From the IMG/VR virus record IMGVR_UViG_3300032330_000236, positions 905 to 64,904 of that record: a stretch of DNA of 64,000 bases; one strand, 5' to 3'. Positions 26,398 through 58,121 of this stretch are shown in pieces. The notes below the pieces were generated by a model. The model made no database searches, was not told where the DNA came from, and saw only the letters and a list, made by a program, of their open reading frames with translations. Source of the stretch: a virus. The stretch's first letter is position 1. The number at the start of each line of letters is the position of its first letter. A program made the translations under genes and the position numbers.

Positions 26398-26406
26398 GAT
26401 GTGTCC

Positions 26407-27927: not shown

Positions 27928-28480
27928 TTTTCACTATTTCTCGGGCTTCAACGTCGATTACTTTGTTCTCTAAGCTACCAAGGGTGTCTAATAGTTCTTT
28001 CTCGACTTCCTCAATAGACAATATCTTATGTGTGACTTCACTACGCTTCTTGAAAGCATCAACGCCATCAATCTCACCTAATTTAGATAGGGCTGCTACC
28101 CGAGTCTTGGCATCCTTGGCGTTCTCGATCTCCAACACCAGCTTGTTTACTACATATAGCTTGAGGTCAGACAACTCATCAACGATAGATACGTTCATCT
28201 GAGCCACCATACCCGCAAGCATGGCGAGTGTCTCATTAGGATATTGAGCGAAGTCAGGCCTGTGCGCAGGATTCGTGACCATCTCTTTGGCTATTGCCTT
28301 GGCTTGGTCAGCATTCTCTTGTGTGGGTACGAGTGGTTTGCCTGTTAAGTCAGACATTAACTTCACCACGTTTGCTCTCATGGTGAGTTCTTCAGACGGA
28401 GACAGATCAGGGAACGCGTCTGCGGCGTTCTTGGGCAGAGGCACGTTCTCCTCTACGTAGGGCATTATCGGTTCTGACAT
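27905..28480 (-). CDS. Probable terminase small subunit
   Basis: First gene of the late operon, overlaps terL; RVAALSKLG, IDVEAREI. Confidence 0.55.
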   Translation of the reverse strand: MSEPIMPYVEENVPLPKNAADAFPDLSPSEELTMRANVVKLMSDLTGKPLVPTQENADQAKAIAKEMVTNPAHRPDFAQYPNETLAMLAGMVAQMNVSIVDELSDLKLYVVNKLVLEIENAKDAKTRVAALSKLGEIDGVDAFKKRSEVTHKILSIEEVEKELLDTLGSLENKVIDVEAREIVKNESKSNA

Positions 28481-28507
28481 GTAAGCGGAATCTCCGGCAG
28501 TTAGCCG

Positions 28508-28535
28508 AATGTAACATAAAAATATATTTATGCAA
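28508..28535 (-). promoter_or_regulatory. Putative promoter of the packaging/late operon
   Basis: TTGCAT-16 nt-TACATT with TGn extension. Confidence 0.45.
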
Positions 28536-28900
28536 GCGGGGGAGGTAAGGAATCCTACCCGGGGGGGTCATTTCGTTTTTCCAAATCGCGTGCGCTGTGT
28601 AATTCGATAGGGGGTGGGGGTAGCTTGCCATGTTTGCCATGTGTTTCAGATAAAGGGGTATGTGTAATTCGATCGGACAGGGTATTGGACAGGGTATTTT
28701 AGGCTGATAGCCGGGTGTAATTGGGCCAATTACACACTCCAGAGGCGTGGCTACATGGAAGCCAATAATTATTACTTGGTAACTTGACATATTACTTGGG
28801 GAAAATTTTGGAAAATTGTGTAGTTGTTTGTTTATATTCGAGGGGGGAGGGTCGGGCGGAGAGGCTCATTTGGGTTTAGGGGGGTGGGGGTGTGGGGCGT
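28536..28900. repeat. G-tract and short-repeat region (candidate pac site/terminus)
   Basis: GTGTAATT x4, perfect IR GTGTAATTGG-G-CCAATTACAC at 28715-28735, tandem GGACAGGGTATT x2, TTGCCATGT x2, many G4-G8 runs. Confidence 0.6.
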
Positions 28901-28915
28901 AGGCTTATTTAGTGC

Positions 28916-28931
28916 TCTGTCACCTGACAGA
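28916..28931. promoter_or_regulatory. Palindromic site copy 1
   Basis: TCTGTCACCTGACAGA. Confidence 0.85.
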
Positions 28932-28935
28932 TTCG

Positions 28936-28964
28936 TTGACATTCCACACCGCATCAGTTAATAT
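28936..28964 (+). promoter_or_regulatory. Early sigma70 promoter P1
   Basis: TTGACA-17 nt-TAATAT. Confidence 0.75.
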
Positions 28965-29023
28965 TCTTTTACTGGATGCAATTCAGCGCCAGTAATTCAA
29001 ATCAAACCTTAAAGGAAATCAAA

Positions 29024-29671
29024 ATGACTAAATCAAAACAATCTCTCGTTTCAATCTCCGACATTGCACTCAATCATGGTAGGGCAGATAACCAAATTGA
29101 CCATTGTGCAAAAACGGCATTGGAAAAAATCAAGGGTTTTCCTGTACTTGCTGATGTAAGTGAAGAGAATATTCAATCTTTGCGCGATGGATATGCTATT
29201 GCATACAAAGAGGTTTTCAAACCTGTCACTTATGCCGTTATTAATGGTCACTATGTTCAGGCATCGCAAGAACATATCTCTAATGATAAGGTTGAAAAAA
29301 TCGAGTTAACCCTTGATTACTGCCTGTCATTTACCACACATGAGATAGGCACAATGTTCAAAGAAAACCCTGCTTTGAAGGCTTTGATTCGCAAAGAACG
29401 CGACGATCAATCAACCTACATTTCAACGAAAATCAAACGCTTAGTAGCTAAGGCAAACGAGATTCTTAAGAAAATGGCGGGAGAGACAACGAAAAGAGAG
29501 AAAGTGCTTTTCAATGTGACAGTAGCTAAATTCTTTGATGCACAAGAAAAGTCTGTCAAGGTTAAAGAAAAAGGTGGAGACCCTAGTGCGAACCCTGCTA
29601 AGTTTTTAACCGCAATGGATGCCTTTTGGAAAGTGTACGGCACAAAACCTGTGATCGTTAAGAAGTCTTAA
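29024..29671 (+). CDS. First early gene, hypothetical protein (monocistronic)
   Basis: AAGGAA RBS before ATG 29024; own promoter and terminator. Confidence 0.8.
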   Translation: MTKSKQSLVSISDIALNHGRADNQIDHCAKTALEKIKGFPVLADVSEENIQSLRDGYAIAYKEVFKPVTYAVINGHYVQASQEHISNDKVEKIELTLDYCLSFTTHEIGTMFKENPALKALIRKERDDQSTYISTKIKRLVAKANEILKKMAGETTKREKVLFNVTVAKFFDAQEKSVKVKEKGGDPSANPAKFLTAMDAFWKVYGTKPVIVKKS

Positions 29672-29683
29672 TAGACTGACCTG

Positions 29684-29714
29684 ACCCCAGACCGCAAGGT
29701 CTGGGGTTTTTTTT
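29684..29714 (+). terminator. Intrinsic terminator
   Basis: ACCCCAGACC-GCAA-GGTCTGGGGT followed by a T run. Confidence 0.9.
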
Positions 29715-29796
29715 CGCCCCGAACTTTTGATACCAGTTATTAAGGGCGCGCGCGTGATGAGTGAGTGGGTCGCGTGAGCCAAGATCTTAATTAGTG

Positions 29797-29814
29797 ATCT
29801 GTCACATGACAGAT
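29797..29814. promoter_or_regulatory. Palindromic site copy 2
   Basis: ATCTGTCACATGACAGAT. Confidence 0.85.
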
Positions 29815-29930
29815 TGGATTCATAGCTGAGACTAGTCCACACCACGCCGCATCGCCACGCATCGCTAAACGAAACTCAGAACTGACGCATTCGATCGCGC
29901 AAAGCACCGCAACACGCTGTTAACTTTACT

Positions 29931-30302
29931 TGTTCTAAAAAACGAGTAGAACAAAGCACACCTCGTAGAACAGAAAATCGCTTGTAAGTCCTTGTCAACA
30001 TTGAAGAAAAAGTTTTTGTTCTAATGTTCTACGATTTTGAGCATAGGGGTCGGAAATTTGAGAAAAACTCTGTGAGCAAGACTTGTCTGCCAAGTGCAAA
30101 GCCGTGTCCCGAAAATCAAAAATAAAACCGTATCCTACCTAAAAACCGTAGAACATTAGAACAAGTTTCATTTCTTTCTTTCTTTTTTATAAAATAATAA
30201 TACTTCTCCTTACAGAAACACATACTTCAACCAAAAAAGTAATACTCATTTTTGTTCTAACTTTACATAGGAAAATAGAACATCCGTAGAACACATAGAA
30301 CA
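29931..30302. repeat. Iteron-like cluster, candidate replication origin
   Basis: 11 TAGAACA copies in both orientations, 18-bp IR at 30016-30033/30147-30164, AT-rich tract. Confidence 0.7.
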
Positions 30303-30323
30303 AACTTCAAGCACCCGCCTGAT

Positions 30324-30465
30324 TAACTATCTTACGCAAAGCCCTTGACTAATATGTATAGTTGTGTTATACTTATAACTGAGTCGGGGATGAAATTCAT
30401 ATTCGACTCTAATTAACGATCTGTCACCTGACAGATTCAATCAACACACAAGGGAGTAAGTCATG
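30324..30465 (+). promoter_or_regulatory. Promoter/leader cassette A (P2, hairpin, palindrome copy 3, RBS)
   Basis: TTGACT-17-TATACT at 30345-30373; palindrome at 30419-30436. Confidence 0.85.
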
Positions 30466-30828
30466 GGTAAATTCAAAGCAATCGCCATCGACATGATGGA
30501 AAACCACGAGCAAGTGCAAGGCGACTTGTTCATCGAAGAAGAACTGCGCACACTGTTGCAGAACTTCAAGCCAACACCTGAGGAACTTCAAGCTGAACTC
30601 GATGAACTGCAAGCTCATCAGATGAGCCAGCCAAGCGTCAATGTGGTTCCTGAGATAAAAGTTTATTTGCTGATGAAGAACGGCTTTCCTCAGCGAAGCT
30701 ACACCGATCGGGCGTTGGCGTTCTATGAGTGCTGGATTTGCACAGCAGGTGATCTGCACACCGAGGAACCCGACGACTACTATGTGGTCGAGATCATGCA
30801 CGATGCGTCAACCTACACAGGGGAATGA
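30463..30828 (+). CDS. Hypothetical early protein
   Basis: 121 aa, AGGGAG RBS. Confidence 0.7.
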   Translation: MGKFKAIAIDMMENHEQVQGDLFIEEELRTLLQNFKPTPEELQAELDELQAHQMSQPSVNVVPEIKVYLLMKNGFPQRSYTDRALAFYECWICTAGDLHTEEPDDYYVVEIMHDASTYTGE

Positions 30829-30831
30829 GAC

Positions 30832-31005
30832 ATGAATCCAATCTATTACATAGGCACTGCCACGATCGCTTGCGGGTTTATCTTTATCGGGTGGGGTGGC
30901 GAGGGCTATCTGTCGCAAGTCTGCCTGATCTTGGGTGGCTTGGGCTTTGGCGCAGTTGTCACCGATGCGCTGAACTATGTTGAAGGAGGTGAGAGCAATG
31001 AGTAA
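30832..31005 (+). CDS. 57-aa two-TM microprotein (below the ORF-track cutoff)
   Basis: MNPIYYIGTATIACGFIFIGWGGEGYLSQVCLILGGLGFGAVVTDALNYVEGGESNE fills the gap exactly. Confidence 0.6.
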   Translation: MNPIYYIGTATIACGFIFIGWGGEGYLSQVCLILGGLGFGAVVTDALNYVEGGESNE

Positions 31006-31216
31006 ATCTACCCACACACCCGAGTGCCGCGACTGCGGCGAAGAGTACTCTGTCAAGCGGTGGAGTCTCGGCTATAAGTTTTGCCTGCCATGCGGTGAGC
31101 AAATCGCCAAGCGTGTCGTGCGAACAGTCGTGCCGATGCACAAGTCCAACTACATGATGGTCACGGACATGGCTGACTTGAAAGGCATCAACAACAAGGG
31201 AGGGTTTCACAGATGA
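30998..31216 (+). CDS. C4 zinc-finger protein (DksA/TraR-finger-like)
   Basis: CRDCGEE-x4-R-x7-CLPC; GGAGGT RBS before ATG 30998. Confidence 0.65.
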   Translation: MSKSTHTPECRDCGEEYSVKRWSLGYKFCLPCGEQIAKRVVRTVVPMHKSNYMMVTDMADLKGINNKGGFHR

Positions 31217-31506
31217 TGTACGAACCACAACCATCGAAAATGGAACAGATAAGACAGTCGTTTGTGAAGATCATTCGTCACAAACAGGACTTGGAGTTAG
31301 AGGTGATTAAGTTACTCAAGAACCCAGCCGCTACTGAGGCGCAAATCATGGAGGTAAGGGAGATGTTGCTTGCCGTAGAAGAACTACTGGGCAGTGCAGT
31401 GCGCAAGGCGAGGGGGAAGTATCCGTATCAGGGTATCAGCTATGCACCAAGACCTTGGCACAAACCCGAGTTCGATAAATACATGGAGGTGAAAGATGGG
31501 GTATAG
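31213..31506 (+). CDS. Hypothetical protein
   Basis: 97 aa, coupled. Confidence 0.65.
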   Translation: MMYEPQPSKMEQIRQSFVKIIRHKQDLELEVIKLLKNPAATEAQIMEVREMLLAVEELLGSAVRKARGKYPYQGISYAPRPWHKPEFDKYMEVKDGV

Positions 31507-31900
31507 ATCAGATGTCGCATACACGATTCGATTCGTGCATGAGGACGACACCAACAACAAGCAATCGTTCTATGTATTCTTAGCTGAGGCTAAGGCTAAT
31601 GCAGCCACGGCTGCTTGCTTCCTTGAGCATGAATGGGCTGAGTTTGAAATAGACGAAGCACGATACCGCATCAACTTTGCCGCTGACGATGTGAAGTGGT
31701 ACGAGAGCTATGCGGATGTGCAATGCCATGAGGCATTACTTAATCTAGCGAACGAGTGGGACAACGATGAGGATAACCACGCCAACATCGCTTTTCAGTT
31801 CGTGCGTATAGGCGAGGAGACTGATGACATCGAGGACAGACGAAGCGAATCTGCTGATGACTGGATTTATGTTGAACGCACGATCAGCAGGGATTGGTAA
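31496..31900 (+). CDS. Acidic hypothetical protein
   Basis: MGYRSDVA, VKWY, FVRIGEE.DD; GGAGGT RBS. Confidence 0.7.
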   Translation: MGYRSDVAYTIRFVHEDDTNNKQSFYVFLAEAKANAATAACFLEHEWAEFEIDEARYRINFAADDVKWYESYADVQCHEALLNLANEWDNDEDNHANIAFQFVRIGEETDDIEDRRSESADDWIYVERTISRDW

Positions 31901-31920
31901 ATAACTGGTCTCTTCCTGTG

Positions 31921-32062
31921 TAACTATCTTGCGTAAAAGGGTTGACCAATATGTCAAGTTGTGTTATACTTATAACTGAGTCGGGAATGGAAATCGTGAA
32001 CGACTTTAATCAACGATCTGTCACCTGACAGATTGAATCATCAATCAAAGGGAGTTCTTATG
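31921..32062 (+). promoter_or_regulatory. Promoter/leader cassette B (P3, hairpin, palindrome copy 4, RBS)
   Basis: TTGACC-17-TATACT at 31942-31970; palindrome at 32016-32033; colinear with cassette A. Confidence 0.85.
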
Positions 32063-32989
32063 AACATGGAGTTATCAAAGCCCAAGCATCTCATCAGCTT
32101 GGCATCGTCAGCAGTCCTCGTTAGCGTGGATGTCAATGTGTGGTCAGCAACGAAGCAAGATCGTGGCATCAGCAATGAGATCACTACCGCAAAGAACGCT
32201 TCAAGCAATGCGGGTCGGTATGTCAAGCACTTGTTGGCAGATCATCCCAAGCACAAGGCGTTGGTCAACTATCGTCAGACGATATACAACTGGGTCAAGC
32301 GCCGCACCTATCGTTGGAATAACTCTCAGGACTTGTTACCGAGTATTGATGTGCCACGCTTCAAGCAGGAGTTCGCAGAGCATCAAGCATCATTCAATAA
32401 GCTCTTAGCTGACTTCATTGTTTCCTACGACGGCATCGTGAGTGACATGGCGTTCAATGCCGCAGGCATGGGCGATATGTTTGATCGGTTGGACTACCCG
32501 CCCAAGGAAGCGTTGGTCGCCAAGTTCGGTGTGCAGTTATTCGTGAGCGAGGTTCCGATGAATGACTTTCGTTGTGGCATTGCGAACGACATCGCTGATG
32601 ATTTGTTTGCGACATACAGCAAGCAAGCCGAGGACATAGTGGTCTCCATCGTGACAGAGCAGAAAGCAAGGTTCGTCGAGGTGATGGAGTCGATCAGTCA
32701 TTGCTGTGGTGTGGATGAGATCGGTGTGGATGACAACACAGGCGAGACCAAGACCCGCAAGCGCAAGATCTACGACACCACAATTCAGAAAGCGTTGGAG
32801 ATGTGCGAGACCTTCAAGGGTTTCAACCTAAGCGCCGATCCCGAGTTGGAGGTAGCCCGAGCATCGCTTGAGAGAGCGTTGGCTGATGTGTCGGCAAAGG
32901 ACATTCGTGAGAGTGACGCAGTGCGTTCGAGTGTGAAAGAAGATGTTGACAGCATCTTGAGTAAGTTCAGTTCTTTTCAGTGTGTTTAA
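32060..32989 (+). CDS. DUF3150-like protein
   Basis: LVSVDVNVWSATKQD, KHLL, DYP; precedes the AAA and vWA genes. Confidence 0.55.
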   Translation: MNMELSKPKHLISLASSAVLVSVDVNVWSATKQDRGISNEITTAKNASSNAGRYVKHLLADHPKHKALVNYRQTIYNWVKRRTYRWNNSQDLLPSIDVPRFKQEFAEHQASFNKLLADFIVSYDGIVSDMAFNAAGMGDMFDRLDYPPKEALVAKFGVQLFVSEVPMNDFRCGIANDIADDLFATYSKQAEDIVVSIVTEQKARFVEVMESISHCCGVDEIGVDDNTGETKTRKRKIYDTTIQKALEMCETFKGFNLSADPELEVARASLERALADVSAKDIRESDAVRSSVKEDVDSILSKFSSFQCV

Positions 32990-33004
32990 TCAAGGAGTAA
33001 TCAA

Positions 33005-34081
33005 ATGAGCAAAATGAATTTCACCCCAATGGTATCCATCAACGAGTTGCGGAAAATGATTCCGCTAATAGGTTCAGATCTGACATTGGTCATACAGAGC
33101 GAGCCAGGTTGTGGCAAGACCTCCCTCTTATCTATGATGGAACAAGATCATGGCGACAAGTATGACTACATCTATGTGGACTGTCCTGTCAAAGACATGA
33201 GCGACATCGGTATGACTATTCCCAATCACGCAAGCAAGTCTCTTGAGTACTATGTTGCTGAGTTGTTCAACATGGACAGCGACAAACCTAAGATGATCTT
33301 ACTTGACGAGTTGATGAAGTCACCCAAGCTCATGCAAGTGATCTATACCCGACTCATGCTTGAGCGTATGGTGGGTGATCGGGCGTTGCCCAAGGGGTCG
33401 GTCATCATTGCAACATCTAACAACGCAAGCGATGGCGTGGGTGACTCAATGCTTGCCCACGCAGGCAATCGTGTGTGTATCGTGCGCATGGCAAAGCCCA
33501 CAGCTGATGAATGGTTGACATGGGCAACAGCTAATGGAATCTCTCGTGTTGTTCGTGCGTTCGTGTCTATGTTCCCTCGGGTCATGGCTTCCTACTTGGA
33601 AGGCGATAACCAAAAAGACAATCCATACATCTTCAAGCCAAGCTCGGGTGTGTTGTCGTTCTGTTCACCTCGTTCATTGGCGAAGTGCGATGTGATCGTG
33701 AAGCATCGTGATGTGTTGGGTGAGAACGCAACTATGGTTGCATTGGCAGGCACGATCGGTGCGTCAGCGGCGGGTGACATGGCGGCTTTCATGTCATTGG
33801 AGAAATCATTGACAGATGTCAAGGACATCGTGAAGAACCCGTTGGGTGTAGTCATGCCAAGAGACATCAGCGCACAGTTGATGATTATGTTTCAAGCAGT
33901 AGATACATTGGCGACACAGGACGAGTTGACAGCGTTCATGGAGTTCGTTGGTCGTATCGACTCAAGCGAGGTGCAAGCGGTGTTCTTCACCATGATGATG
34001 CGTAGTCCCAAGGCAGTGCGTCTTGCAAGAAACAATGCAAAGATCGCTGAGTGGGCTAAGAATAACCATGAACTGTTCTAA
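33005..34081 (+). CDS. AAA+ ATPase (MoxR/dynein-related)
   Basis: EPGCGKTS, ILLDE, IATSN, NR, SPRS. Confidence 0.85.
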   Translation: MSKMNFTPMVSINELRKMIPLIGSDLTLVIQSEPGCGKTSLLSMMEQDHGDKYDYIYVDCPVKDMSDIGMTIPNHASKSLEYYVAELFNMDSDKPKMILLDELMKSPKLMQVIYTRLMLERMVGDRALPKGSVIIATSNNASDGVGDSMLAHAGNRVCIVRMAKPTADEWLTWATANGISRVVRAFVSMFPRVMASYLEGDNQKDNPYIFKPSSGVLSFCSPRSLAKCDVIVKHRDVLGENATMVALAGTIGASAAGDMAAFMSLEKSLTDVKDIVKNPLGVVMPRDISAQLMIMFQAVDTLATQDELTAFMEFVGRIDSSEVQAVFFTMMMRSPKAVRLARNNAKIAEWAKNNHELF

Positions 34082-34091
34082 GGAGTGAGTG

Positions 34092-34286
34092 ATGATAAGT
34101 ATTACTGAGTTGGAGTTGGTGTTGTTCATTGGCTTTGTCGTGATGACAGGGATGTACTTCAAGCTGAGAGGCGAGTTGTATATGCACAGGCGTGTAACGG
34201 CTGAGATCTTCATGCGTATTGCCAAGGGCAATATGAAAGTGACAGAGACCGAAGATGGTTACGAGTTGGAGGTTACATCCAAATGA
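34092..34286 (+). CDS. Small single-TM protein
   Basis: LELVLFIGFVVMTGMYF; AAGGAG RBS. Confidence 0.6.
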   Translation: MISITELELVLFIGFVVMTGMYFKLRGELYMHRRVTAEIFMRIAKGNMKVTETEDGYELEVTSK

Positions 34287-34369
34287 GCGAAACAAAGTGG
34301 TTGACTCTCGCCTATGTGTTGGCGATGGTCGTTCTTGTGTTAGATGTTTTTTACTGGAGAGTGGGATGA
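34283..34369 (+). CDS. 28-aa single-TM microprotein (below the ORF-track cutoff)
   Basis: MSETKWLTLAYVLAMVVLVLDVFYWRVG with ATGA overlaps at both ends. Confidence 0.6.
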   Translation: MSETKWLTLAYVLAMVVLVLDVFYWRVG

Positions 34370-35646
34370 GCAAACAAGAGACGCGTGTTAAGAAGGCGCA
34401 CATCGCCTTGATGAAACACCCTGAGACAGCACTGTATAGCGGTGTGATGTTGATGGGTAAGAGTGAGGTCGTCGATAGTGGATGTCCTACGGCATACACC
34501 GATGGTGTCAACAAGGTCTATGGTCGCAAGTTCTTAGAGACTGTCGATACCGAGCCAAAGGTTCGTGGTTTGATACTGCATGAGAATCTTCATGTAGCGT
34601 TGAAGCAGTTGCCAAGAGGTAAGGATATGTTTGATGAGAATCGCAAGCTCGCAAACATCGCCGCCGACATGGTAGTCAACAACATCATCGAAGATATTAA
34701 AGGCACAGTCAATGGTTCGTCCGAGCGAATCGTTGCGTTGCCTGATGGTGCGGTGTATGACCCCATGTTCCAAAACTGGTCGATGCGTGAGGTATACAAC
34801 TATCTCAAGAAGAACTGCAAAGGCAAGGGCAAAGGTAAGGGTGAGGGCAAGGGCGGTGGAAATAGTGATCTGTCAGGTGACAGACCCGAAGATGGTGATG
34901 GAGATGGCGACACTATCACTATCAACGGCAAGACCTATGATCTTTCTGACGCAGACGAACATGATCTCGATAACCTGAAAGACCTGACGCATGAGCAGAT
35001 CAAAGAGATCAACGATGCAATCGACAAGGCATTGCGTGAGGGCGGTATGTTGGCGGGTCGCATGGGTGCAAAGATACCTAGATCAATCTCCGACTTACTT
35101 GAACCAAAGGTAGATTGGCGTGATGCGTTGAGAGACTTTGTAGCGAGTGCTATCAAAGGCAAAGATGAATTCACATGGCGTCGAATGAACAAGCGTCAGC
35201 TCGTCAATGATATTTATCTGCCAAGCATGGAGAACGAGACAATCGGTGAGGTGGTCGTTGCCATTGACACATCGGGTTCGATCGGCAGTGCGCAGATCAC
35301 TGAGTTTGCAACAGAACTGGTCTCTATTTGTGATCTGTGTTCGCCCGACAAAGTGCGTGTTTTGTGGTGGGATACCGATGTACATGGTGAGCAAGCCTTT
35401 GCAGGCAACTACCAAGACATCGCTACTCTACTCAAGCCAATGGGCGGAGGCGGTACTCATGTGTCATGCGTCAATGAATACATCAACAAGGAACGCATCA
35501 ATGCGGAGTGCGTCATCGTGTTCACTGATGGCTATGTTGAGAGCGACATCACATGGACTATTCCTAGCCCAACCCTGTGGATGGTCACCGAGTGCAAATC
35601 GTTCGAGCCTCCTGTCGGTAAGAAGGTGAAGTTCGGTGACGACTGA
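34366..35646 (+). CDS. HExxH metallopeptidase-like plus vWA protein (DUF2201 type)
   Basis: TAYTDG, LHENLH, MIDAS DTSGS, GGGGT, FTDGY; start moved to MSKQE. Confidence 0.85.
   Translation: MSKQETRVKKAHIALMKHPETALYSGVMLMGKSEVVDSGCPTAYTDGVNKVYGRKFLETVDTEPKVRGLILHENLHVALKQLPRGKDMFDENRKLANIAADMVVNNIIEDIKGTVNGSSERIVALPDGAVYDPMFQNWSMREVYNYLKKNCKGKGKGKGEGKGGGNSDLSGDRPEDGDGDGDTITINGKTYDLSDADEHDLDNLKDLTHEQIKEINDAIDKALREGGMLAGRMGAKIPRSISDLLEPKVDWRDALRDFVASAIKGKDEFTWRRMNKRQLVNDIYLPSMENETIGEVVVAIDTSGSIGSAQITEFATELVSICDLCSPDKVRVLWWDTDVHGEQAFAGNYQDIATLLKPMGGGGTHVSCVNEYINKERINAECVIVFTDGYVESDITWTIPSPTLWMVTECKSFEPPVGKKVKFGDD
34868..34885. promoter_or_regulatory. Palindromic site copy 5 (intragenic, inverted spacer)
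   Basis: ATCTGTCAGGTGACAGAC. Confidence 0.75.
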
Positions 35647-35878
35647 TTCATTTGCAATGCTGTTCGCTGACATTACTTATAGGACAAAAGGCGTGACAAA
35701 AGAAAGCAAACACCGAATGTCAAAAGAGTTAGCGCAGGAACTCAGAGATCAAATGGGGGACAACGCTTATCTCTTTTGCGTAGAGAAACTATCAAACGGC
35801 ACAGAACAACCACAACTGTGGCGTGATGTGTTGACTTGGCTTACTGAAACTGAAACAACAAAAGGGGAAACGAAATGA
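35636..35878 (+). CDS. Hypothetical protein
   Basis: Fills the gap; start uncertain. Confidence 0.5.
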   Translation: MTTDSFAMLFADITYRTKGVTKESKHRMSKELAQELRDQMGDNAYLFCVEKLSNGTEQPQLWRDVLTWLTETETTKGETK

Positions 35879-36852
35879 AGGGTCTTAGTTACGAGCGCCT
35901 TGAGCGCATTACACACAAAGAAAACCCATACCGAGGCACAACCAATCGGTATCCTGTGGGCAACCGCAGACACAACCTCAAGAACTTCTATGTCAGAGAA
36001 GAGAATGGCGTAAAAGTATTTGATGTGACATACGGCACACGACACAAGTCACACGCTTGTACGAAAGAACAATTCGATGCAATGGAAGCAACAGGCGCAA
36101 GTCATATTTATAAGTATGAATATACTGACCGCATTGAATACCTACGATACGAGGTAGTGCCATTCAGAATCGGCACAGTGTATCCCGAAGAATACTTTCA
36201 ATTCAACGGCGATTCCTACTATGGGCAGGGCGATCGTGCGTTCTTGAGTGATTGTTCTCATGGATGGTTCTGCAATGATTCACGCAGGGGCGGCATGGTG
36301 TGGACATTCGGTCGCGGCGTTGATTACCGATGTATTCCGATCTTCAAGGGTATGCGTGTCTCTACTGCGGATAACTTTGAAGTGCTTGATGACTATGTGG
36401 TGGTCGGCAAGAAAGTCAATCGTAAGGTGGGTAAAGATCTTCTTGCGGGATATGAAACTTTCTACAAGACTGCTGAGACTATGTGCAAAGCAATGTCTAG
36501 AGAAATCTTTCTTGCAACTGCTAAGGAAATCATTGAGGAGGAACAACGAGACCACAAAAAATTCTTTGATGAAGCCGAAGCACGACGAGATCAAGCACCG
36601 CTTGATGCAATGATTCTCTACGCGTTGGCGTTGGATGTGGGCAAGATCGGTCAACAGATCAACCATCCGAATTGGTATCAAGCCGAGCCACACGAAGTAT
36701 TTTGCAATCTCAAGCGAAAGATGAACAACGGACTCTATCGGGAACATCCCGAGGTGTTTACCCCTGTGCGTTATGGCAAGGGTGAGGCGTACCCACCAAG
36801 CATTTGGGGATACGAGATCGAGGTCAATGGCGAGATCAAGCAACAGTATTAA
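35875..36852 (+). CDS. Hypothetical protein
   Basis: 325 aa with RBS. Confidence 0.8.
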   Translation: MKGLSYERLERITHKENPYRGTTNRYPVGNRRHNLKNFYVREENGVKVFDVTYGTRHKSHACTKEQFDAMEATGASHIYKYEYTDRIEYLRYEVVPFRIGTVYPEEYFQFNGDSYYGQGDRAFLSDCSHGWFCNDSRRGGMVWTFGRGVDYRCIPIFKGMRVSTADNFEVLDDYVVVGKKVNRKVGKDLLAGYETFYKTAETMCKAMSREIFLATAKEIIEEEQRDHKKFFDEAEARRDQAPLDAMILYALALDVGKIGQQINHPNWYQAEPHEVFCNLKRKMNNGLYREHPEVFTPVRYGKGEAYPPSIWGYEIEVNGEIKQQY

Positions 36853-36858
36853 TCAGTA

Positions 36859-36876
36859 GTCTGTCATCCGACAGAT
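36859..36876. promoter_or_regulatory. Palindromic site copy 6 (degenerate, intergenic)
   Basis: GTCTGTCATCCGACAGAT. Confidence 0.65.
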
Positions 36877-36898
36877 TCATTTTCAAAAGGGGAAAGTA

Positions 36899-37822
36899 AT
36901 GAGTAGATATATTCTTGAGGGATTCAACGAGGAAGGCTTTGAAGAGAGCCTCAAAGCAAGCCGAGTGTTTCCATTGGTGCGTGACTTGTGCCACAAGTTC
37001 AATCTGAAAGTCTTAGCCGAGACAGAACTCAGTGGTAAGCAGGCGTTCCAGTTGTGCCATCCCAATGGCATGACAGTAGGTAAGGCGTTCGTCAGAGACA
37101 TCGACGACAACGGCAGTCTTGCAACAGAGTATTGCTATCGCACACCTTACTACACAAAAGAGCGTGGTAGGAGTCACGACGACAAGACAACATTGCGTAG
37201 CACCAAAGTCTCTTCACTGATAGCAACCATTGGCAGAGTCAAAGCTATTCCCAGTATCGACAAGTTGGTCGAGAAGAAGATGAACAAACTAGGCGATGCG
37301 AGAGAGATCATGGAGAAAGCGATGGGGAGTACACACAAGTCAACTAGTGAACTCTATGCTGACGAGATACAAGCATTGCTTTGTGCGGTACTAGGGGAAA
37401 CTCCTAATGGAAATCACATCACAATCGACACAGTTAAATGTAAAAAGGTACTTGACAAATACAATGAAGCTGATAGGATTCGGGTCAAGAAGTTAGAAGA
37501 AGTCGGTAGGTTTTTTCACAATCCTTTCTACATGATTGGTGCAGATCAATTCAACCACTTCATAGTCGGCAAAGTTAAAGTCATAGGGGAGAAACAGTAT
37601 GAAATCGTTGAGCCATTCAAACGCTACAAAAACATCACCGAGCGTGATGATCTTATCCCTGTGATGACTATGACTAAGTTAGCCTACGAGGGTAAGGGGC
37701 ATCGTATGCAGGCAGGTTACATACCCGCAACCGATATGTACGACGAGAGCCTTGATGCGGTGTTCTTCTACGAACAGCAAGCCACACACTACGACTACAT
37801 TTGGATGGCTACTCCATGCTGA
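36899..37822 (+). CDS. Hypothetical protein
   Basis: 307 aa with RBS. Confidence 0.8.
   Translation: MSRYILEGFNEEGFEESLKASRVFPLVRDLCHKFNLKVLAETELSGKQAFQLCHPNGMTVGKAFVRDIDDNGSLATEYCYRTPYYTKERGRSHDDKTTLRSTKVSSLIATIGRVKAIPSIDKLVEKKMNKLGDAREIMEKAMGSTHKSTSELYADEIQALLCAVLGETPNGNHITIDTVKCKKVLDKYNEADRIRVKKLEEVGRFFHNPFYMIGADQFNHFIVGKVKVIGEKQYEIVEPFKRYKNITERDDLIPVMTMTKLAYEGKGHRMQAGYIPATDMYDESLDAVFFYEQQATHYDYIWMATPC
37452..37479 (+). promoter_or_regulatory. Possible intragenic sigma70 promoter
   Basis: A-tract, then TTGACA-16-TAGGAT with TGn extension. Confidence 0.35.
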
Positions 37823-38169
37823 GTGAGAACCTTGCACCGATTGTTCATCAATGGAACTGGGACTTAGTGCGAGTCCCTGTTCGTAAGATTGAAGATCACT
37901 ACATCGTCTTTGTGGCTGACGCATATCACAGACGATACGACGAGGATACATTGCCTGATGAGTTGAAAACCAAGATGGCAATGATTCTCGCAAGCCCACA
38001 TCACAAGGTGTTACCTGACCACAAGTTGCAGAAGCTCACACTCTACACAAACAATGAGTCAGAAGAACTTGATGAGATAGGGTGGCAAGCATCGGACACT
38101 TTCTTTTGTGTGGCGTTGACACGCCCGACCTTGGCACTGATGAGAGGGGAAAAAGATGGGGAAACTTAA
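37816..38169 (+). CDS. Hypothetical protein
   Basis: Start moved to MLSENL; overlaps the upstream stop. Confidence 0.7.
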   Translation: MLSENLAPIVHQWNWDLVRVPVRKIEDHYIVFVADAYHRRYDEDTLPDELKTKMAMILASPHHKVLPDHKLQKLTLYTNNESEELDEIGWQASDTFFCVALTRPTLALMRGEKDGET

Positions 38170-38425
38170 AGCTGCTTGGTCAGAGGAACTTCTTGAACAG
38201 AGCATAAGGGAAATCATGTTCCCCAAAGACTATTGGATTACCAAAGATGGGCGGTTCATTCCTATTGATGACATGGACTTTCAACACCTTGAGAACATCG
38301 TCAATTTCTTTTCTCAGGAAGGCACAACAGTTGACCCGATGAGGCAAGGTGCGTTTGAAAAGGTGATGTTGCGGTATCTGCGTATGCAAGCCGAGATCAA
38401 TGATGTCCACAAAGATATTCTGTAA
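38156..38425 (+). CDS. Hypothetical protein
   Basis: WITKDGR.IPIDDM..HLENI. Confidence 0.7.
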   Translation: MGKLKAAWSEELLEQSIREIMFPKDYWITKDGRFIPIDDMDFQHLENIVNFFSQEGTTVDPMRQGAFEKVMLRYLRMQAEINDVHKDIL

Positions 38426-38436
38426 GGAGAGCAAGC

Positions 38437-38736
38437 ATGGCTAGTACACCCGAGGGCAGGGTCAAGGACAAGATCAAGAAGATTCTTAAGGCACACGATA
38501 TCTACTATGCGATGCCACATGGCGCGGGGTTTGGTAATGCGGGTGTGCCTGACTTCCTGTGTTGTGTTGAAGGAGAGTTTGTAGCAGTCGAAGCCAAAGC
38601 AAATGGTGGCAAGGTTACCGCGCTTCAACAAAAAAACTTATCTGACATCGAAGCCTCGGGAGGTTCGGCATGGGTTGTTGATGAAACCAATATCCACGTG
38701 TTTGAGATTTGGATAAAAGAAGGAGTGTTCCTATGA
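38437..38736 (+). CDS. VRR-NUC (PD-(D/E)xK) nuclease
   Basis: TPEGRVK, GVPD, AVEAK, TALQ. Confidence 0.85.
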   Translation: MASTPEGRVKDKIKKILKAHDIYYAMPHGAGFGNAGVPDFLCCVEGEFVAVEAKANGGKVTALQQKNLSDIEASGGSAWVVDETNIHVFEIWIKEGVFL

Positions 38737-38843
38737 AAGTATTTTGGTGGACAGTCCTTGCTGTGAATATGTTAGCGGTTGTGTGTACTGGTCTAGTCAC
38801 GCTTGGCTGGTGGTTAGCGTCAGCGTTACCAAGGAGTTTTTAA
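38733..38843 (+). CDS. 36-aa single-TM microprotein (below the ORF-track cutoff)
   Basis: MKVFWWTVLAVNMLAVVCTGLVTLGWWLASALPRSF; AAGGAG RBS and ATGA overlap. Confidence 0.6.
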   Translation: MKVFWWTVLAVNMLAVVCTGLVTLGWWLASALPRSF

Positions 38844-39047
38844 ATGGATGAACAAGACAGAAGTAATTTGCGTGATCTACACGCAGGGTTTGCAATGATA
38901 GGTTTAATTATGAAAGGAGATGCACCGCACACTATCCCAACCAAGGCATATCTGTATGCCGACGAGATGCAAGAAGCCCGAGACCAGCATGTCGCTGGAA
39001 TCGTATCAGTGAAACGCCGTACCAAAAAGGAGAAGGCAGATGAGTAA
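38844..39047 (+). CDS. Hypothetical protein
   Basis: LRDLHAGFAM..AYLYADEM phage small-protein pattern. Confidence 0.7.
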   Translation: MDEQDRSNLRDLHAGFAMIGLIMKGDAPHTIPTKAYLYADEMQEARDQHVAGIVSVKRRTKKEKADE

Positions 39048-39495
39048 AGTAATTGAGGTCGCCAACATGATGGCGAATGAACCAAACACTAAGGTGGATG
39101 ATGTCATTAAGAAATTGAAAATATCAAGGACTTATGCGTACAACCTGATGACGCAGGCGAGAAAGAAATACATCAACCGCCGTAACGAAGCGTTGAAGAA
39201 CAAACCCAAGTATCGAATGGAATCCTCAGCTACAAATCTGTCAGGTGACAGATCACTAAATATCGTGGAGACACACTTCCCGATCACAATGGAGTCTGAC
39301 CCAGTGAATCATCCCGAGCATTACAAGACAGGTGGTATCGAGACGATCGACTTCATCGAGGCAAAGAGTCTTGGCTATAACCTTGGCAACGTGGTGAAGT
39401 ACATCACACGATCAGACCACAAGGGCAACAAGCTACAAGACTTACAGAAAGCTCAGTGGTATCTCAACAGAGAGATTGCTAAGTCACAGGCTTGA
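39040..39495 (+). CDS. DUF3310 protein with possible N-terminal HTH
   Basis: DPVNHPEHY, GNVVKY, DLQKAQWYL. Confidence 0.85.
   Translation: MSKVIEVANMMANEPNTKVDDVIKKLKISRTYAYNLMTQARKKYINRRNEALKNKPKYRMESSATNLSGDRSLNIVETHFPITMESDPVNHPEHYKTGGIETIDFIEAKSLGYNLGNVVKYITRSDHKGNKLQDLQKAQWYLNREIAKSQA
39236..39253. promoter_or_regulatory. Palindromic site copy 7 (intragenic, inverted spacer)
   Basis: ATCTGTCAGGTGACAGAT. Confidence 0.8.
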
Positions 39496-39500
39496 TTCGT

Positions 39501-39526
39501 AGGCATGGTTCGCCATGCCTTTTTTT
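39501..39526 (+). terminator. Intrinsic terminator
   Basis: AGGCATGG-TTCG-CCATGCCT then T6. Confidence 0.85.
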
Positions 39527-39560
39527 GACACTTTTGAAAATCTTATTTAAGGGGAACAAC

Positions 39561-39797
39561 ATGATACAAGGACTTCAAAGCCCATCTATTAATTTCACAA
39601 TTGACAATAACAGCATACAGCTTCGTATGCCGTATCAGAACACGCCACAAGATGTCTACAAGTATCTCAGAGAGATGGACTTTGTTCACACCGCCAATTC
39701 AAGTGGCGATATATGGATGCGAAAAGGCACGAGCGAATACTTCACATGGGAACAAGCCGTGGCGTATTGCCTCATCAAACCATTCCTCAACCCCTGA
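39561..39797 (+). CDS. Hypothetical protein
   Basis: Start moved to MIQGLQ after the AAGGGG RBS. Confidence 0.65.
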   Translation: MIQGLQSPSINFTIDNNSIQLRMPYQNTPQDVYKYLREMDFVHTANSSGDIWMRKGTSEYFTWEQAVAYCLIKPFLNP

Positions 39798-39827
39798 CTT
39801 GAAACCAGTTATTTAAGGAGAGCGACC

Positions 39828-40346
39828 ATGCTGACTGGATTAGATATTTTGATTGCACGAATGAAAACCAACCCCGAGGAGTTTCTTAAAGAAGATGGGC
39901 AAGTGCCTTATCAGGGGGAAATGTTTGGTGGGAAGTGGTCAGACTTACTTGACTACGCTTGGCGTGTTGCGAACGAAGAAGAACGAGCCGCCCTTGAAGT
40001 GGCGCAAAAAGAGTTTTATCGTGATGACTTTAACGAGCGAGTCTTCAAGCGTCTTGCAGGCGAGGAGAATATCCAACTGCCTGAGACCATGAGATACAAA
40101 GCGCAAGGGCGTTACGCAACAGGATGGATTGACCCAAGAGCGCAACAGGCGGCGCAAATGCACCCACTGCAAAATTCAGCACAAAATGCGGTGTTACAGG
40201 GCGGTATGTATGACCCGAATACGCATGGGTACTTGACCACCACAAGCGGTTTCCAAGCGGCAGAAATCAAAGGTGAGGGACAGCCCATTGGTTATAGCGG
40301 CGGTCAACCGCCTTTTTGGAGTGGTTTATTTGGGGGTAAGAAATGA
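39828..40346 (+). CDS. Hypothetical protein
   Basis: ILIARMKTNPEEF; AAGGAG RBS. Confidence 0.75.
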   Translation: MLTGLDILIARMKTNPEEFLKEDGQVPYQGEMFGGKWSDLLDYAWRVANEEERAALEVAQKEFYRDDFNERVFKRLAGEENIQLPETMRYKAQGRYATGWIDPRAQQAAQMHPLQNSAQNAVLQGGMYDPNTHGYLTTTSGFQAAEIKGEGQPIGYSGGQPPFWSGLFGGKK

Positions 40347-40555
40347 TTGAACCGATACAAACATTTTTTGGCAAGATACGTGGACTGCGTGGTGATCGTC
40401 AAGCGATCATCAACCAAACGATGATGTGGAGATGCACTGTGTGCGGAAATATTTTTAGAACAAAGGAAGAGGGAGATTTGCATGGAGTGTCCTCACTGCG
40501 GTGCGTGGAGTCTGGTCAAGGAGACAAGATCGTCCCCCACAAGGTACAGGCGTAG
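40343..40555 (+). CDS. Small zinc-finger-like protein
   Basis: WRCTVCGNIF..H. Confidence 0.55.
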   Translation: MIEPIQTFFGKIRGLRGDRQAIINQTMMWRCTVCGNIFRTKEEGDLHGVSSLRCVESGQGDKIVPHKVQA

Positions 40556-40703
40556 GCGGGAGTGCGCAAATGAGCATAGCTTCACAACCGAAGAAGTCGT
40601 CGTCCCACAAGAGCAGATCAAAGCGGAGAACGCAGAACGTGTCCAGTCTCATAGAAAAAAATATGTGGAATCCATTCGAGCGCGTAGACCCAAAAGTGCT
40701 TGA
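40482..40703 (+). CDS. NrdR-N-like zinc ribbon protein
   Basis: MECPHCG..VKETR..RRRREC...FTTEE. Confidence 0.7.
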   Translation: MECPHCGAWSLVKETRSSPTRYRRRRECANEHSFTTEEVVVPQEQIKAENAERVQSHRKKYVESIRARRPKSA

Positions 40704-40776
40704 GAGGTTACATAAAAAACATGAACAGAACGCACGCAAGTATTTGCTGGTTAACTTTGATGAAGCACCGATATGA
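40663..40776 (+). CDS. Small hypothetical protein
   Basis: MWNPFERVDPKVLE..; ATGA overlap with the polymerase gene. Confidence 0.45.
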   Translation: MWNPFERVDPKVLERLHKKHEQNARKYLLVNFDEAPI

Positions 40777-42665
40777 ATTTAATTACTCTTGACTTTGAAA
40801 CCTACTACGCCAAGGGCTTGGGCTTTAGAACTCAAACGACTGAGGAGTATGTGCGTGATCGACGCTTTGAGATCATTGGCGTTGGCGTGAAGATTGACGA
40901 CCAACCCTCCACATGGTTCTCGGGAACACACGCTGAGATAAAAGAACACTTACTGAAGCTTGACTGGAGTAAGGCGGCCCTGCTGTGTCACAACACCTTA
41001 TTCGATGGGTGCGTCTTGGCGTGGCATCTCGGTATCAACCCTGCGTTTATGTACGACACCCTTTGCATGGCGCGGGCAATCCACGGCGTAGAGGCGGGCG
41101 GCTCACTCAAGGCGTTGGCTCTGCGCTATGGGATTGGCGTGAAAGGCGACGAGGTAATCCACGCGGAAGGTAAGAAACGCCTTGACTTCAGTGAAGAAGA
41201 ACTTCACCGATACGGTGAGTACTGCATAAACGACGTGAATCTTACGTTTGACCTTTTCCACATTCTTGCGAGCGCGTTTCCACAGAAAGAAATGAATCTG
41301 ATTGACATGACGTTGCGGATGTTTACTCAGCCTGCGTTCCATGTTGACGATGCGTTGCTACAAGACCGCCTCATTGAGCTACAAGAAGAGAAGATGGCGC
41401 TACTCCAAACATTGATGGAGAAACTCAAATGCAAGGACGAGGAAGAGGTACGCAAAAAGCTGGCAAGTGGCAAGCAGTTCGCCGCTGTGTTGCAAGAGTT
41501 CAATGTTAAGCCACCTATAAAAGTAAGTCCACGAACAGGGAAGGATACGTATGCACTGGCTAAAAATGACGAGGGGTTCTTGGCGCTCACTGAACATGAA
41601 GATGAGTTCGTGCAACACCTCTGCGCGGTACGCCTTGGGACGATGTCCACCTTGGAAGAAAGTCGTATACAGCGATTCATTGACGTCGGGAAGCGTAACA
41701 AGGGACGACTCCCAATACCTCTCAAGTATTACGGCGCACACACGGGTAGATGGGCTGGCTCTGATAAGGTCAATTTCCAGAATTTGCCCAGTCGAGATAA
41801 GAAGAAAAAGACCCTCAAAAATGCAGTTATCCCGCCCGATGACTTTGTTGTTATCAACTGTGACTCCTCGCAGATCGAGGCGCGTATCTTGGTATGGCTT
41901 GCTGGACAGGAGGACGTCACTCAACAATTTGCGAATGGAGAAGATGTTTACTCTGTGTTCGCAACCAAGATATACGAACGACCAATTAGCAAAGAAAATC
42001 CTGTGGAACGCTTCGTTGGAAAGACCTGTATTCTGGGTCTAGGTTACGGCACTGGCGCGTTAAAACTTCAGCACACGCTCAAGACAAGCCCCCCGGGAGC
42101 TGTCGTTACTGAAGACGAGGCTAAAGAGTTTGTTAAGACATACCGTGACTCAAATGCTCAAGTCATTCAGCTATGGAAAGAAGGCGACAAAGTTATTGAG
42201 CATTTAATTGACTGGCCTACGGAGAAAGATAAGGTAACTCCAATAAAGCCTTATTACTATGGTGTCAAAGGCTCCAACTGTTTGAAGGTAACCAAGGAAG
42301 GGATAACCCTGCCTAACGGACTGATGATTCGTTATCCCGAACTCAAGAAGGATACTGAAGAATCTAAAACCCGATACACCTACAAGTCACGTAAAGGGCC
42401 TGTCTCCATATGGGGCGGATCGCTAGTTGAAAACGTAGTTCAAGCGTTGGCGAGGATTGTCGTTGGCGAGCAGATGCTCAAGATACAGGAGCGATACCGT
42501 GTTGCTCTAACAGTTCACGATGCGGCGGTCATCTTAGTTCCTGAGTCAGAGAAGGACGAGGCGATGGCGTATGTGGTTGAGTGCATGTCTGTGCCACCCG
42601 ACTGGGCTAAGGGATTACCCGTGGCTTGCGAGGCGAAGTACGGTTACAGCTATGGTGAATGTTAA
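40773..42665 (+). CDS. DNA polymerase family A with 3'-5' exonuclease
   Basis: DFET, HNTLFD, YCIND, TGRW, NFQN, DSSQIEAR, RFVGKTCILGLGYG, VHD. Confidence 0.95.
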   Translation: MNLITLDFETYYAKGLGFRTQTTEEYVRDRRFEIIGVGVKIDDQPSTWFSGTHAEIKEHLLKLDWSKAALLCHNTLFDGCVLAWHLGINPAFMYDTLCMARAIHGVEAGGSLKALALRYGIGVKGDEVIHAEGKKRLDFSEEELHRYGEYCINDVNLTFDLFHILASAFPQKEMNLIDMTLRMFTQPAFHVDDALLQDRLIELQEEKMALLQTLMEKLKCKDEEEVRKKLASGKQFAAVLQEFNVKPPIKVSPRTGKDTYALAKNDEGFLALTEHEDEFVQHLCAVRLGTMSTLEESRIQRFIDVGKRNKGRLPIPLKYYGAHTGRWAGSDKVNFQNLPSRDKKKKTLKNAVIPPDDFVVINCDSSQIEARILVWLAGQEDVTQQFANGEDVYSVFATKIYERPISKENPVERFVGKTCILGLGYGTGALKLQHTLKTSPPGAVVTEDEAKEFVKTYRDSNAQVIQLWKEGDKVIEHLIDWPTEKDKVTPIKPYYYGVKGSNCLKVTKEGITLPNGLMIRYPELKKDTEESKTRYTYKSRKGPVSIWGGSLVENVVQALARIVVGEQMLKIQERYRVALTVHDAAVILVPESEKDEAMAYVVECMSVPPDWAKGLPVACEAKYGYSYGEC

Positions 42666-42689
42666 GATAAGTAAAGAAGGAGTTAACAT

Positions 42690-42923
42690 ATGGAATCCCG
42701 ATACCTTGACCCCGAAGACGAAGAGCACGGACTATTCAACGAGTTTGAAATACAAGCAAGACAGCGCAGGGAAGCGGTAAGAGCCAACTTGCAGAGCCTA
42801 GTACACAACCCATTCAGAAATGATGTCATCGAGGAAGTGGCGCAAGCCGTAGAAAAGATGCACGGTTTTGGTCAGGACACCATCAGTTCATTGGCAATCT
42901 ATATCAGGGGGATGAAGAAATGA
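42690..42923 (+). CDS. Hypothetical protein
   Basis: RNDVIEEVA..FGQDTISS; RBS. Confidence 0.7.
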   Translation: MESRYLDPEDEEHGLFNEFEIQARQRREAVRANLQSLVHNPFRNDVIEEVAQAVEKMHGFGQDTISSLAIYIRGMKK

Positions 42924-43087
42924 ACTTTGGTGACCAAGGAAAACTGGCAAACGGATTGGTTGATGAACTGCTCACGCTCATTCACAAGTATGACGAGTCG
43001 CTGTATATGTGTAGCGTCATTGGCGTGTTGGAGTTGGTCAAGCAACAACTGATAACTGAGAGTATGGACAGGGAGGATGATGAATGA
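42920..43087 (+). CDS. 55-aa hypothetical protein (below the ORF-track cutoff)
   Basis: MNFGDQG..VIGVLELVKQQL; ATGA overlaps at both ends. Confidence 0.6.
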   Translation: MNFGDQGKLANGLVDELLTLIHKYDESLYMCSVIGVLELVKQQLITESMDREDDE

Positions 43088-43308
43088 CACTACAAGAACA
43101 GTTTGAGCAAGCCAAAGCGCAACTTAAAGAAATCAACGCTGGCAGACCAAAAGTTTATCGTGCATGGGAAGACACATGGGCTACGTTTCACGAAGACCCC
43201 GCCGCTTTTCACAAGGCATACAACAGCTTGTACAGCTATGACATTGAGAAGAACAAAGTTTTGGATGAAGTGATTCGATTGAGAGACTTAGTTGAGGAGA
43301 AGCTATGA
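43084..43308 (+). CDS. Hypothetical protein
   Basis: 74 aa, coupled. Confidence 0.65.
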   Translation: MTLQEQFEQAKAQLKEINAGRPKVYRAWEDTWATFHEDPAAFHKAYNSLYSYDIEKNKVLDEVIRLRDLVEEKL

Positions 43309-43859: not shown

Positions 43860-43861
43860 GC

Positions 43862-45168: not shown

Positions 45169-45170
45169 TT

Positions 45171-58119: not shown

Positions 58120-58121
58120 GT

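Follow-up and report, generated by a model that had tools for sequence, protein, structure and literature searches.

Short restriction-type palindromes are missing from the early arm of an uncultured freshwater phage genome

Introduction

Why does one arm of a phage genome contain no copy of two four-base palindromes that recur in the rest of the same DNA? The question is raised by the early arm of a 64,000-nucleotide stretch of viral DNA, referred to here as the window, which corresponds to bases 905-64904 of the IMG/VR virus record IMGVR_UViG_3300032330_000236 (64,904 bp). The original prediction, made by manual scan of the letters, had described a 12.2-kb early region free of GGCC and CCGG and had proposed staged DNA entry as the reason. 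The window covers almost the entire genome of an uncultured, podovirus-like phage from freshwater, whose gene layout resembles that of N4. We grouped its open reading frames (ORFs) into three blocks: an early arm (E; plus strand, 28791-40772), a replication arm (M; plus strand, 40773-51432) and a late block (L; minus strand), which lies in two parts (1-28790 and 51613-64000). The late block and the early arm diverge from a junction of 185 bp (28791-28975).

Results

A direct scan that listed every site gave 100 GGCC and 106 CCGG in the whole window. The gap coordinates proposed from the manual scan matched this listing exactly: GGCC is last seen at 28724 and next at 40976, and CCGG at 28711 and 42093. 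The interval 28728-40975 (12,248 bp) contains neither word at a GC content of 46.5%, which differs little from that of the remaining sequence. The component trinucleotides are abundant (GGC 174, GCC 102, CCG 94 and CGG 93) and, as had been claimed, are never extended to the palindromes; the base following GGC is G in 71 cases, A in 71, T in 31 and C in none. The expected numbers are indeed in the tens, as the prediction had held, with 26.0 GGCC and 14.4 CCGG under a second-order Markov model and 23.7 and 25.1 when scaled from the rest of the window (Poisson probabilities of zero sites, 5e-11 and 1e-11, respectively). Counts of the interrupted forms, which the prediction had proposed alongside those of the 4-mers, gave no GGNCC site between 28723 and 40976 and a single CCNGG site (33104) between 28711 and 42092. 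The site-free zone begins in the divergent junction and ends about 200 bp within the polymerase gene.

The 22 plus-strand early ORFs were then subjected to a synonymous-codon shuffle in which protein sequences and codon usage were kept. Shuffled ORFs contained 19.5+/-3.5 GGCC and 15.2+/-3.4 CCGG, and zero was reached in none of 300 shuffles; a repeat run had none of 200 down to the observed counts. The two weaknesses that the original prediction had itself allowed for, sites missed by eye and an effect of codon usage, were thereby addressed, and neither was found. Three further words proved scarce in E that the prediction had overlooked: ACGT (4 observed versus 33 in the shuffles), which is absent from 28456 to 38695, CGCG (9 versus 34-35) and GCWGC (3 versus 15). 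Deamination of 5-methylcytosine was ruled out as the cause, since its products CCAG and CTGG are low rather than high.

The same shuffle was performed on 12 ORFs of M and 35 of L. The ratios of observed count to shuffle mean in E, M and L, respectively, were 0.00, 0.42 and 0.72 for GGCC; 0.00, 0.40 and 0.85 for CCGG; 0.12, 0.81 and 0.93 for ACGT; 0.25, 0.50 and 0.75 for CGCG; and 0.20, 0.39 and 0.90 for GCWGC, and the control words GCGC and GATC gave ratios near 1. In absolute numbers, GGCC and CCGG each occur 0 times in E versus 74-83 times in the L genes. The depletion is therefore graded: complete in E, about half in M and slight in L. The description of both words as common elsewhere holds for the late block and fails for 41-51 kb, which is intermediate (GGCC 15 versus 35, CCGG 8 versus 20).

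The profile along the DNA is asymmetric. Counted together, GGCC, CCGG, ACGT and GCWGC reach about 15 sites per kb over the final 1.5 kb of the late block and drop to 0 over about 300 bp at the junction; the densities thereafter are about 0.5 (E), 6 (M) and 10.5 (L) sites per kb, and the relatives described below show the same shape. The DNA richest in sites thus adjoins the site-free DNA on the circular map, as would be the case for virion DNA with its ends at this point, one of them leading into the cell. Six-base palindromes followed another pattern, being about two-fold down in all three blocks (observed/expected, 72/135 in E, 52/122 in M and 310/585 in L). TGATCA, ATCGAT, TCATGA, ATGCAT, GCATGC and GTCGAC are absent from the whole window, where 10-24 would be expected in sum.

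The original prediction had suggested a repeat of the counts in related genomes. With the MoxR-like ATPase of the early arm as query, we obtained 77 related IMG/VR loci (65-94% identity), of which ten complete or nearly complete genomes (60.7-66.7 kb) were taken, giving 11 genomes with the window. All ten are syntenic with it: small and large terminase on the minus strand; g231 (the first early gene), ATPase, VWA protein, DUF3310 protein, polymerase, helicase and primase on the plus strand; and the giant gene on the minus strand. In a tree of the ATPase comprising 47 distinct lineages, 36 lack at least one palindrome in the same arm. GGCC was flagged in 32 of the 47, GATC in 9, GTAC in 7, ACGT in 4 and AGCT in 2, scattered across clades. 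The late flank had observed/expected ratios near 1 in the 24 loci containing it, with one word in one locus flagged.

The palindromes missing from the relatives' early arms are lineage-specific and include GGCC, CCGG, CGCG, GATC, GTAC, AGCT and ACGT. One genome (G001) has observed/expected counts in E of 0/21 for CGCG, 0/14 for GGCC, 5/45 for GTAC and 11/38 for AGCT, and in L of 184/199 for GTAC and 253/283 for AGCT. A second (G008) has GATC at 4/52 in E, 10/47 in M and 52/122 in L, and a third (G009) has GGCC at 0/30 in E and 74/126 in L. G005 (L099-L102, 63.7 kb) contains no CCGG at all (expected 12, 18 and 63 in E, M and L) together with a regional loss of GATC; GGCC and CGCG are strongly low throughout this genome, so that whole-genome and regional avoidance are combined there. 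G006, G007 and G010 showed no strong regional loss. The presence or absence of individual early genes among the relatives gave no clean correlate of the presence or absence of depletion.

The set of lost words changes between close lineages. ACGT is lost in the window and in two loci with 90-94% ATPase identity (L007 and L009) and is kept in three others (L006, L010 and L017). The core early genes of G009 hold 20 ACGT sites, 19 of which are missing in place in the window, 11 via synonymous changes. Site turnover, as judged from these sequences, proceeds by point changes. To define the class of words affected, strand-symmetrised observed/expected ratios in E and L were compared for 136 canonical 4-mers, including 16 palindromes, in the 11 genomes. 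The value of log2((E ratio)/(L ratio)) was below -1.5 for 17 palindromes versus 1 non-palindrome, and the sole 'enriched' word was a zero-count artefact. This specificity points to dimeric readers of double-stranded DNA, i.e. Type II-like restriction enzymes. The selection on restriction-type words that the original prediction had in mind is borne out as palindrome-specific, largely synonymous, lineage-variable and confined to the early arm.

The junction at which the site density steps down also carries the first early promoter. The last late ORF before it in the ORF list (28407-28790, minus strand) encodes 127 amino acids, and site density in the late block is near normal up to this point. 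Within the junction lie an operator-like palindrome (28917-28930) and a sigma-70-like promoter, TTGACA-17-TAATAT (28936-28964, plus strand), which is the first of three strong sigma-70-like promoters at the start of the arm (28936, 30345 and 31942). The palindrome, CTGTCACNTGACAG, occurs in seven copies with 0-2 mismatches, at 28917, 29799, 30421, 32018, 34870, 36861 and 39238, all of them in the early arm (28917-39251); about 2 matches would be expected by chance per strand scan. From its sequence and placement CTGTCACNTGACAG looks like the operator of an early-gene regulator. Promoters and operator-like palindromes together suggest that E is a host-transcribed early regulon.

The start of the arm is also rich in repeats. 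Its largest non-coding gap (29672-30462) contains a 26-nt inverted repeat (30016-30041 and 30139-30164) and short direct repeats, and the contigs of several relatives break in the matching region; the gap may serve as an origin, an entry pause site or a genome end. A 137-nt promoter cassette on the plus strand (30318-30454), consisting of the promoter TTGACT-17-TATACT with TG (30345-30373), a leader and a copy of the palindrome (30421-30434), is repeated 1.6 kb away with 82% identity (31915-32051). At 13 of the 77 related loci the contig ends 0.7-1.2 kb upstream of the ATPase gene, at this duplicated cassette. We considered these contig ends as genome ends and rejected them as repeat-induced, since the breaks cluster between g231 and the ATPase gene at the duplication.

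Eighteen sequencing runs were found, as contig assemblies only, and the contigs of four (X1, X2, X3 and X7) were placed on 23001-43000. The contig over 28767-29885 has a depth of 250 and 204 in runs X2 and X3, versus 60-100 for its neighbours (2.5-3.6-fold), and in run X1 the contig over 28841-32301 has a depth of 21.8 versus 12.5-18.4. The raised depth at 28767-29885 may reflect a short terminal repeat containing g231, or strains piled up. Contig depths of X1 range from 12.5 to 21.8 over 23-43 kb with no two-fold step across the 12 kb, contig depth being a poor measure. The ends of the IMG/VR record itself overlap each other by 123 bp, and overlaps of 123 or 127 bp also occur in the relatives' assemblies; the record's 'terminal repeat' of 123 bp was therefore probably created by the assembler and is no true terminal repeat.

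The 22 ORFs of the early arm run from 28976 to 40776 and leave about 1.4 kb non-coding. They are mainly small genes without a known family, accompanied by those for the MoxR-like ATPase, a DUF2201/VWA protein and a DUF3310 protein; all features named here are on the plus strand. The first gene, g231 (28976-29671), encodes 231 amino acids with an isoelectric point (pI) of 9.3, has its own promoter and a terminator (29683-29708), belongs to no known family and is found in all ten full relatives at 27-55% identity. In several loci (L011, L074, L056, L058, L014/L015, L078 and L020) g231 is present as two diverged tandem copies, which is typical of a fast-evolving gene family. Two small acidic proteins follow. 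p121 (30463-30828; pI 4.4, 23 D+E and 8 K+R) matches no family and is a candidate DNA mimic by its charge alone. p134 (31496-31900; pI 4.3, 32 D+E and 12 K+R) has 42 orthologues among the fetched loci, and its predicted structure (pLDDT 90) is ferredoxin-like but matched no solved structure informatively, the best hits having an E-value of 0.011 in Foldseek against the PDB and a Z of 5.9 in VIA, where they were generic ferredoxin-like designs.

A conserved core trio (32033-35646) comprises p318, the MoxR-like AAA ATPase (33005-34081; phrog_1297), which is the counterpart of N4 gp24, and the DUF2201 metallopeptidase-like/VWA protein (34255-35646), the counterpart of N4 gp25. Next come the conserved early proteins p325 (35875-36852) and p307 (the pair spanning 35875-37822), neither of which has a known family; p318, the ATPase, the VWA protein, p325 and p307 are all conserved across the phage family. 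The p325 model (pLDDT 92) had no informative match among solved structures (best E-value 0.22, best Z 5.1). Profile searches of PDB sequences returned nothing for p325 and one chance match for p307 (E 0.42). PHROGs and Pfam gave nothing for g231, p121, p134, p318, p325, p307 and most small early ORFs, and an Atlas search of the early proteins returned viral hypothetical clusters only. The ORF at 38437-38736 gave a weak VRR-NUC hint (E 0.0017), which is below the cut-off. Identification of p325 or p307, the two proteins compared, as subunits of N4 RNAPII (gp15/gp16) found no support in hhalign, with probabilities of 0.1-0.3%.

A six-frame search of the whole genome with PF08684, PF07275, PF00145, PF01555 and PF02086 gave 0 matches at E <= 0.1, and control genomes were matched by the same profiles. 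That no anti-restriction gene or methyltransferase is recognisable, as first stated from the letters alone, is thus confirmed for these families. The early proteins searched showed no resemblance to Ocr or ArdA, though one of them may still be a DNA mimic. On position and properties only, the candidates for a protector are g231, p121, p134, p318, the ATPase, the VWA protein, p325 and p307.

The replication arm encodes DNA polymerase, a 2OG-Fe oxygenase, exonuclease, helicase and primase. The first part of the late block contains structural genes, the portal (22788-25313), the large terminase (26407-27927) and the likely small terminase (27905-28480), all on the minus strand. The second part, also with near-normal site density, encodes a 2168-amino-acid giant protein (51613-58119, minus strand), an 872-amino-acid ejection-protein-like ORF and others. 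The giant protein has a Pfam LPD38 'polyvalent protein' domain at residues 1848-2045 (E 5e-17) and no other recognisable domain, and is probably a virion protein that enters the cell along with the DNA. Its assignment as a virion RNA polymerase found no support, with no PHROG or PDB sequence match, no DxDxD motif and LPD38 as the only Pfam domain. An inserted, optional gene lies between portal and large terminase: its ORF of 275 amino acids (25570-26397) has no family match and is bypassed in related-strain contigs (joint 25573 to 26409 in runs X2 and X3, and 25315 to 26407 in X7). The nearest kin of the large terminase are in HTVC023P-type pelagiphages and cyanopodoviruses (43-51% identity). 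Megablast of 28-42 kb against phage records gave no match, and DSL-LC04, the inspected isolate with the nearest large terminase, showed no synteny with the window.

Discussion

We consider it fairly probable that the missing palindromes reflect restriction avoidance confined to first-entering DNA, the early arm leading from fixed ends at the junction. The virion DNA would end at the junction, and the early arm (28.8-40.8 kb) would enter the cell first, its rightward transcription driven by host-type promoters located next to the terminase genes at the junction. This DNA would lie naked in the cytoplasm during the expression of its genes, and selection would purge it of the 4-5-bp palindromes cut by the Type II enzymes of the hosts. 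The replication arm would come next, and the late genes would come last or be exposed most briefly, after early products had blunted restriction. Such staged exposure would make sites costly in E, cheaper in M and cheap in L. Fixed ends, directional staged entry and an early protective function are what we infer; staged entry is consistent with a site density that drops abruptly at the junction and climbs in grades to its right, and with the N4-like layout.

The precedent that the original prediction had drawn from T5 and T7 holds, in the sources consulted, for T5/BF23 (PMC10644984) and for one genus of the T7 family (PMC12455610). In T5 and BF23, sites are described as exposed to Type I and Type II systems only when located in the first-step-transfer DNA, with the protector still to be identified (PMC10644984). 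That account has the leading ~10 kb of T5 required to be site-free in vivo while sites elsewhere are tolerated, and recognition sites in the window are likewise absent from the early arm and present in the rest. Both genomes also have a repeat-rich non-coding region after the first gene or genes, here at 29672-30462. T5 differs as a 122-kb siphovirus with its leading DNA in a 10-kb terminal repeat, and the PHROG and Pfam scans of the window found no homology to T5 pre-early genes. The evidence differs as well: in the window it is a statistical footprint of many 4-5-bp words as opposed to plating results, and the depletion is graded instead of two-state.

For Murciavirus (Autographiviridae), a Type I motif is reported to matter only in the first-injected region (PMC12455610). 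Shared with Murciavirus and T7 would be sub-genomic restriction selection on a first-injected, highly variable early region with host-type promoters at the leading end. The Murciavirus case concerns one Type I motif with escape mutants there, whereas Type II-like palindromes are affected here. T7-like phages carry all genes on one strand, with the gene for a single-subunit RNA polymerase in the early region; the genes of the window form two opposed blocks, and the searches found neither such a polymerase nor Ocr.

N4 is the closest model for the layout. Its left end is injected first, and entry is described as completed only after middle proteins are made (PMC4496689). The window shares with N4 (Schitoviridae) a rightward early and replication arm, a giant virion-protein gene at the convergent point, a terminase ending the leftward late block, and the pair of gp24-like ATPase and gp25-like VWA protein; in contrast to N4, its promoters are sigma-70-like and not hairpin-like. 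Genome-wide restriction-site avoidance is treated as a classical finding in PMC12455610, where it is also noted that avoidance surveys ignored site position and that headful phages should lack a positional effect. The window resembles the classical case in having 6-bp palindromes at about half of expectation and differs from it in that 4-5-bp words are purged in one arm only. In a search that left most subscription journals outside its reach, neither a positional survey nor any account of 4-5-bp palindromes purged regionally in this or a similar uncultured family came to light.

Several observations weigh against staged entry as the cause. Because 6-bp palindromes are low in E, M and L alike, late DNA also meets some restriction, and because the M arm is just half depleted, there is no clean two-state pattern; together these two features imply that any protection is partial, delayed or enzyme-specific. 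The general signature of E differs from that of L, with a non-palindrome tetranucleotide usage deviation (TUD) correlation of r 0.31 (0.55-0.57 for the other pairs) and a delta* of 0.102 (0.044-0.059 for the other pairs), and a separate history may be part of the reason. Transcription in the rightward direction does not suffice to draw in the last 42 kb, since the late genes point leftward, and family scans (40 ORFs with PHROGs, 40 ORFs with Pfam) found no phage RNA polymerase. Virion ends at the junction are suggested by N4 synteny and the asymmetric profile, and the contig data list no molecule ends. The six-frame profiles found no Ocr, ArdA, or C5, N6/N4 or D12-class (Dam) methyltransferase; 11 of the 47 lineages have no early-arm depletion; and in N4 itself the loss of GATC is genome-wide with no regional pattern.

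Unlikely, in our judgement, but the best of the alternatives, is that the whole genome enters at once and that only the early units need stay intact until they are expressed. Early products such as nuclease inhibitors, repair or recombination functions or rapid replication would then rescue or outrun cuts elsewhere, and selection would act on the early operons instead of on first-entering DNA. The extent of the site-free zone, which equals the promoter-to-terminator span of the early operons and their operator palindromes, suits this explanation, as do the half-depleted M arm, which is needed next, and the genome-wide avoidance of 6-bp palindromes, by which late DNA would be exposed. Also in its favour, ligase-dependent repair of nuclease cuts is the subject of a 2026 preprint on phiKMV-like phages. 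Enzymes cutting at four bases would, however, hit the late block at about 75-110 places per word, which would be hard to mend, and the asymmetry of the profile, abrupt on the left and graded on the right, is more readily understood from a direction of entry than from a set of operons. Staged entry is common to all the precedents backed by experiments (T5, Murciavirus and N4).

Avoidance of methylation in place of cleavage seems to us quite improbable. Progeny leaving one host with methylated DNA would have it cut by the modification-dependent Type IV enzymes of the following host, and the first-exposed DNA would shed its methylatable sites. The lost words are short palindromes which we take to be of the kind methylated by common Type II methyltransferases, and the regional logic is the same as that of restriction avoidance in first-entering DNA. 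Type IV enzymes in the same defence island are described in PMC12455610. No result here separates methylation avoidance from classical restriction, and early exposure would still be required, which makes the proposal a variant of selection on first-entering DNA and no alternative to it.

Very improbable, finally, is a mosaic origin, in which phages with genome-wide avoidance of these words donated the early arm, whose pattern would then be a legacy instead of being maintained in place. The difference in oligonucleotide signature between E and L speaks for it, and the early genes are the most variable, with many early ORFs of the window lacking a counterpart in the relatives and with g231 fast-evolving and duplicated. 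Yet the core early genes are 61-89% identical family-wide while word sets such as that including ACGT change between close lineages, and sites are removed by synonymous point changes in orthologous genes. The reverse pattern, with L depleted and E not, is seen in none of the 11 genomes, and without selection sites would return at the observed divergence. An explanation by chance, codon usage, amino-acid composition or mutational bias can practically be dismissed, given the Poisson probabilities of about 1e-11 per word, the failure of all 200-300 synonymous shuffles to reach the observed counts for five words, the specific loss of palindromes and the lack of any excess of deamination products.

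The early arm of this phage gives a very clean footprint, read from sequence only, of sub-genomic restriction selection, a phenomenon with experimental proof only for T5-like phages and one T7-family genus. The pattern occurs in a widespread uncultured freshwater phage family (77 related IMG/VR loci). From the footprint follow predictions on the position of the virion DNA ends, the end that leads on entry and the enzymes present in the hosts of each lineage, and the hunt for a broad anti-restriction function is reduced to a few conserved early genes without a recognised fold. It is possible, and we propose it tentatively, that among about a dozen conserved early proteins without a known family lies a broad, sequence-independent shield against many Type II enzymes, the counterpart of the protector sought in T5, and that the E/M/L gradient records the order and timing of entry. 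If this is true, sequence by itself could reveal where the genome of an uncultured phage ends, with which polarity it is injected and which restriction enzymes its hosts possess. A systematic positional survey of site avoidance looks worthwhile.

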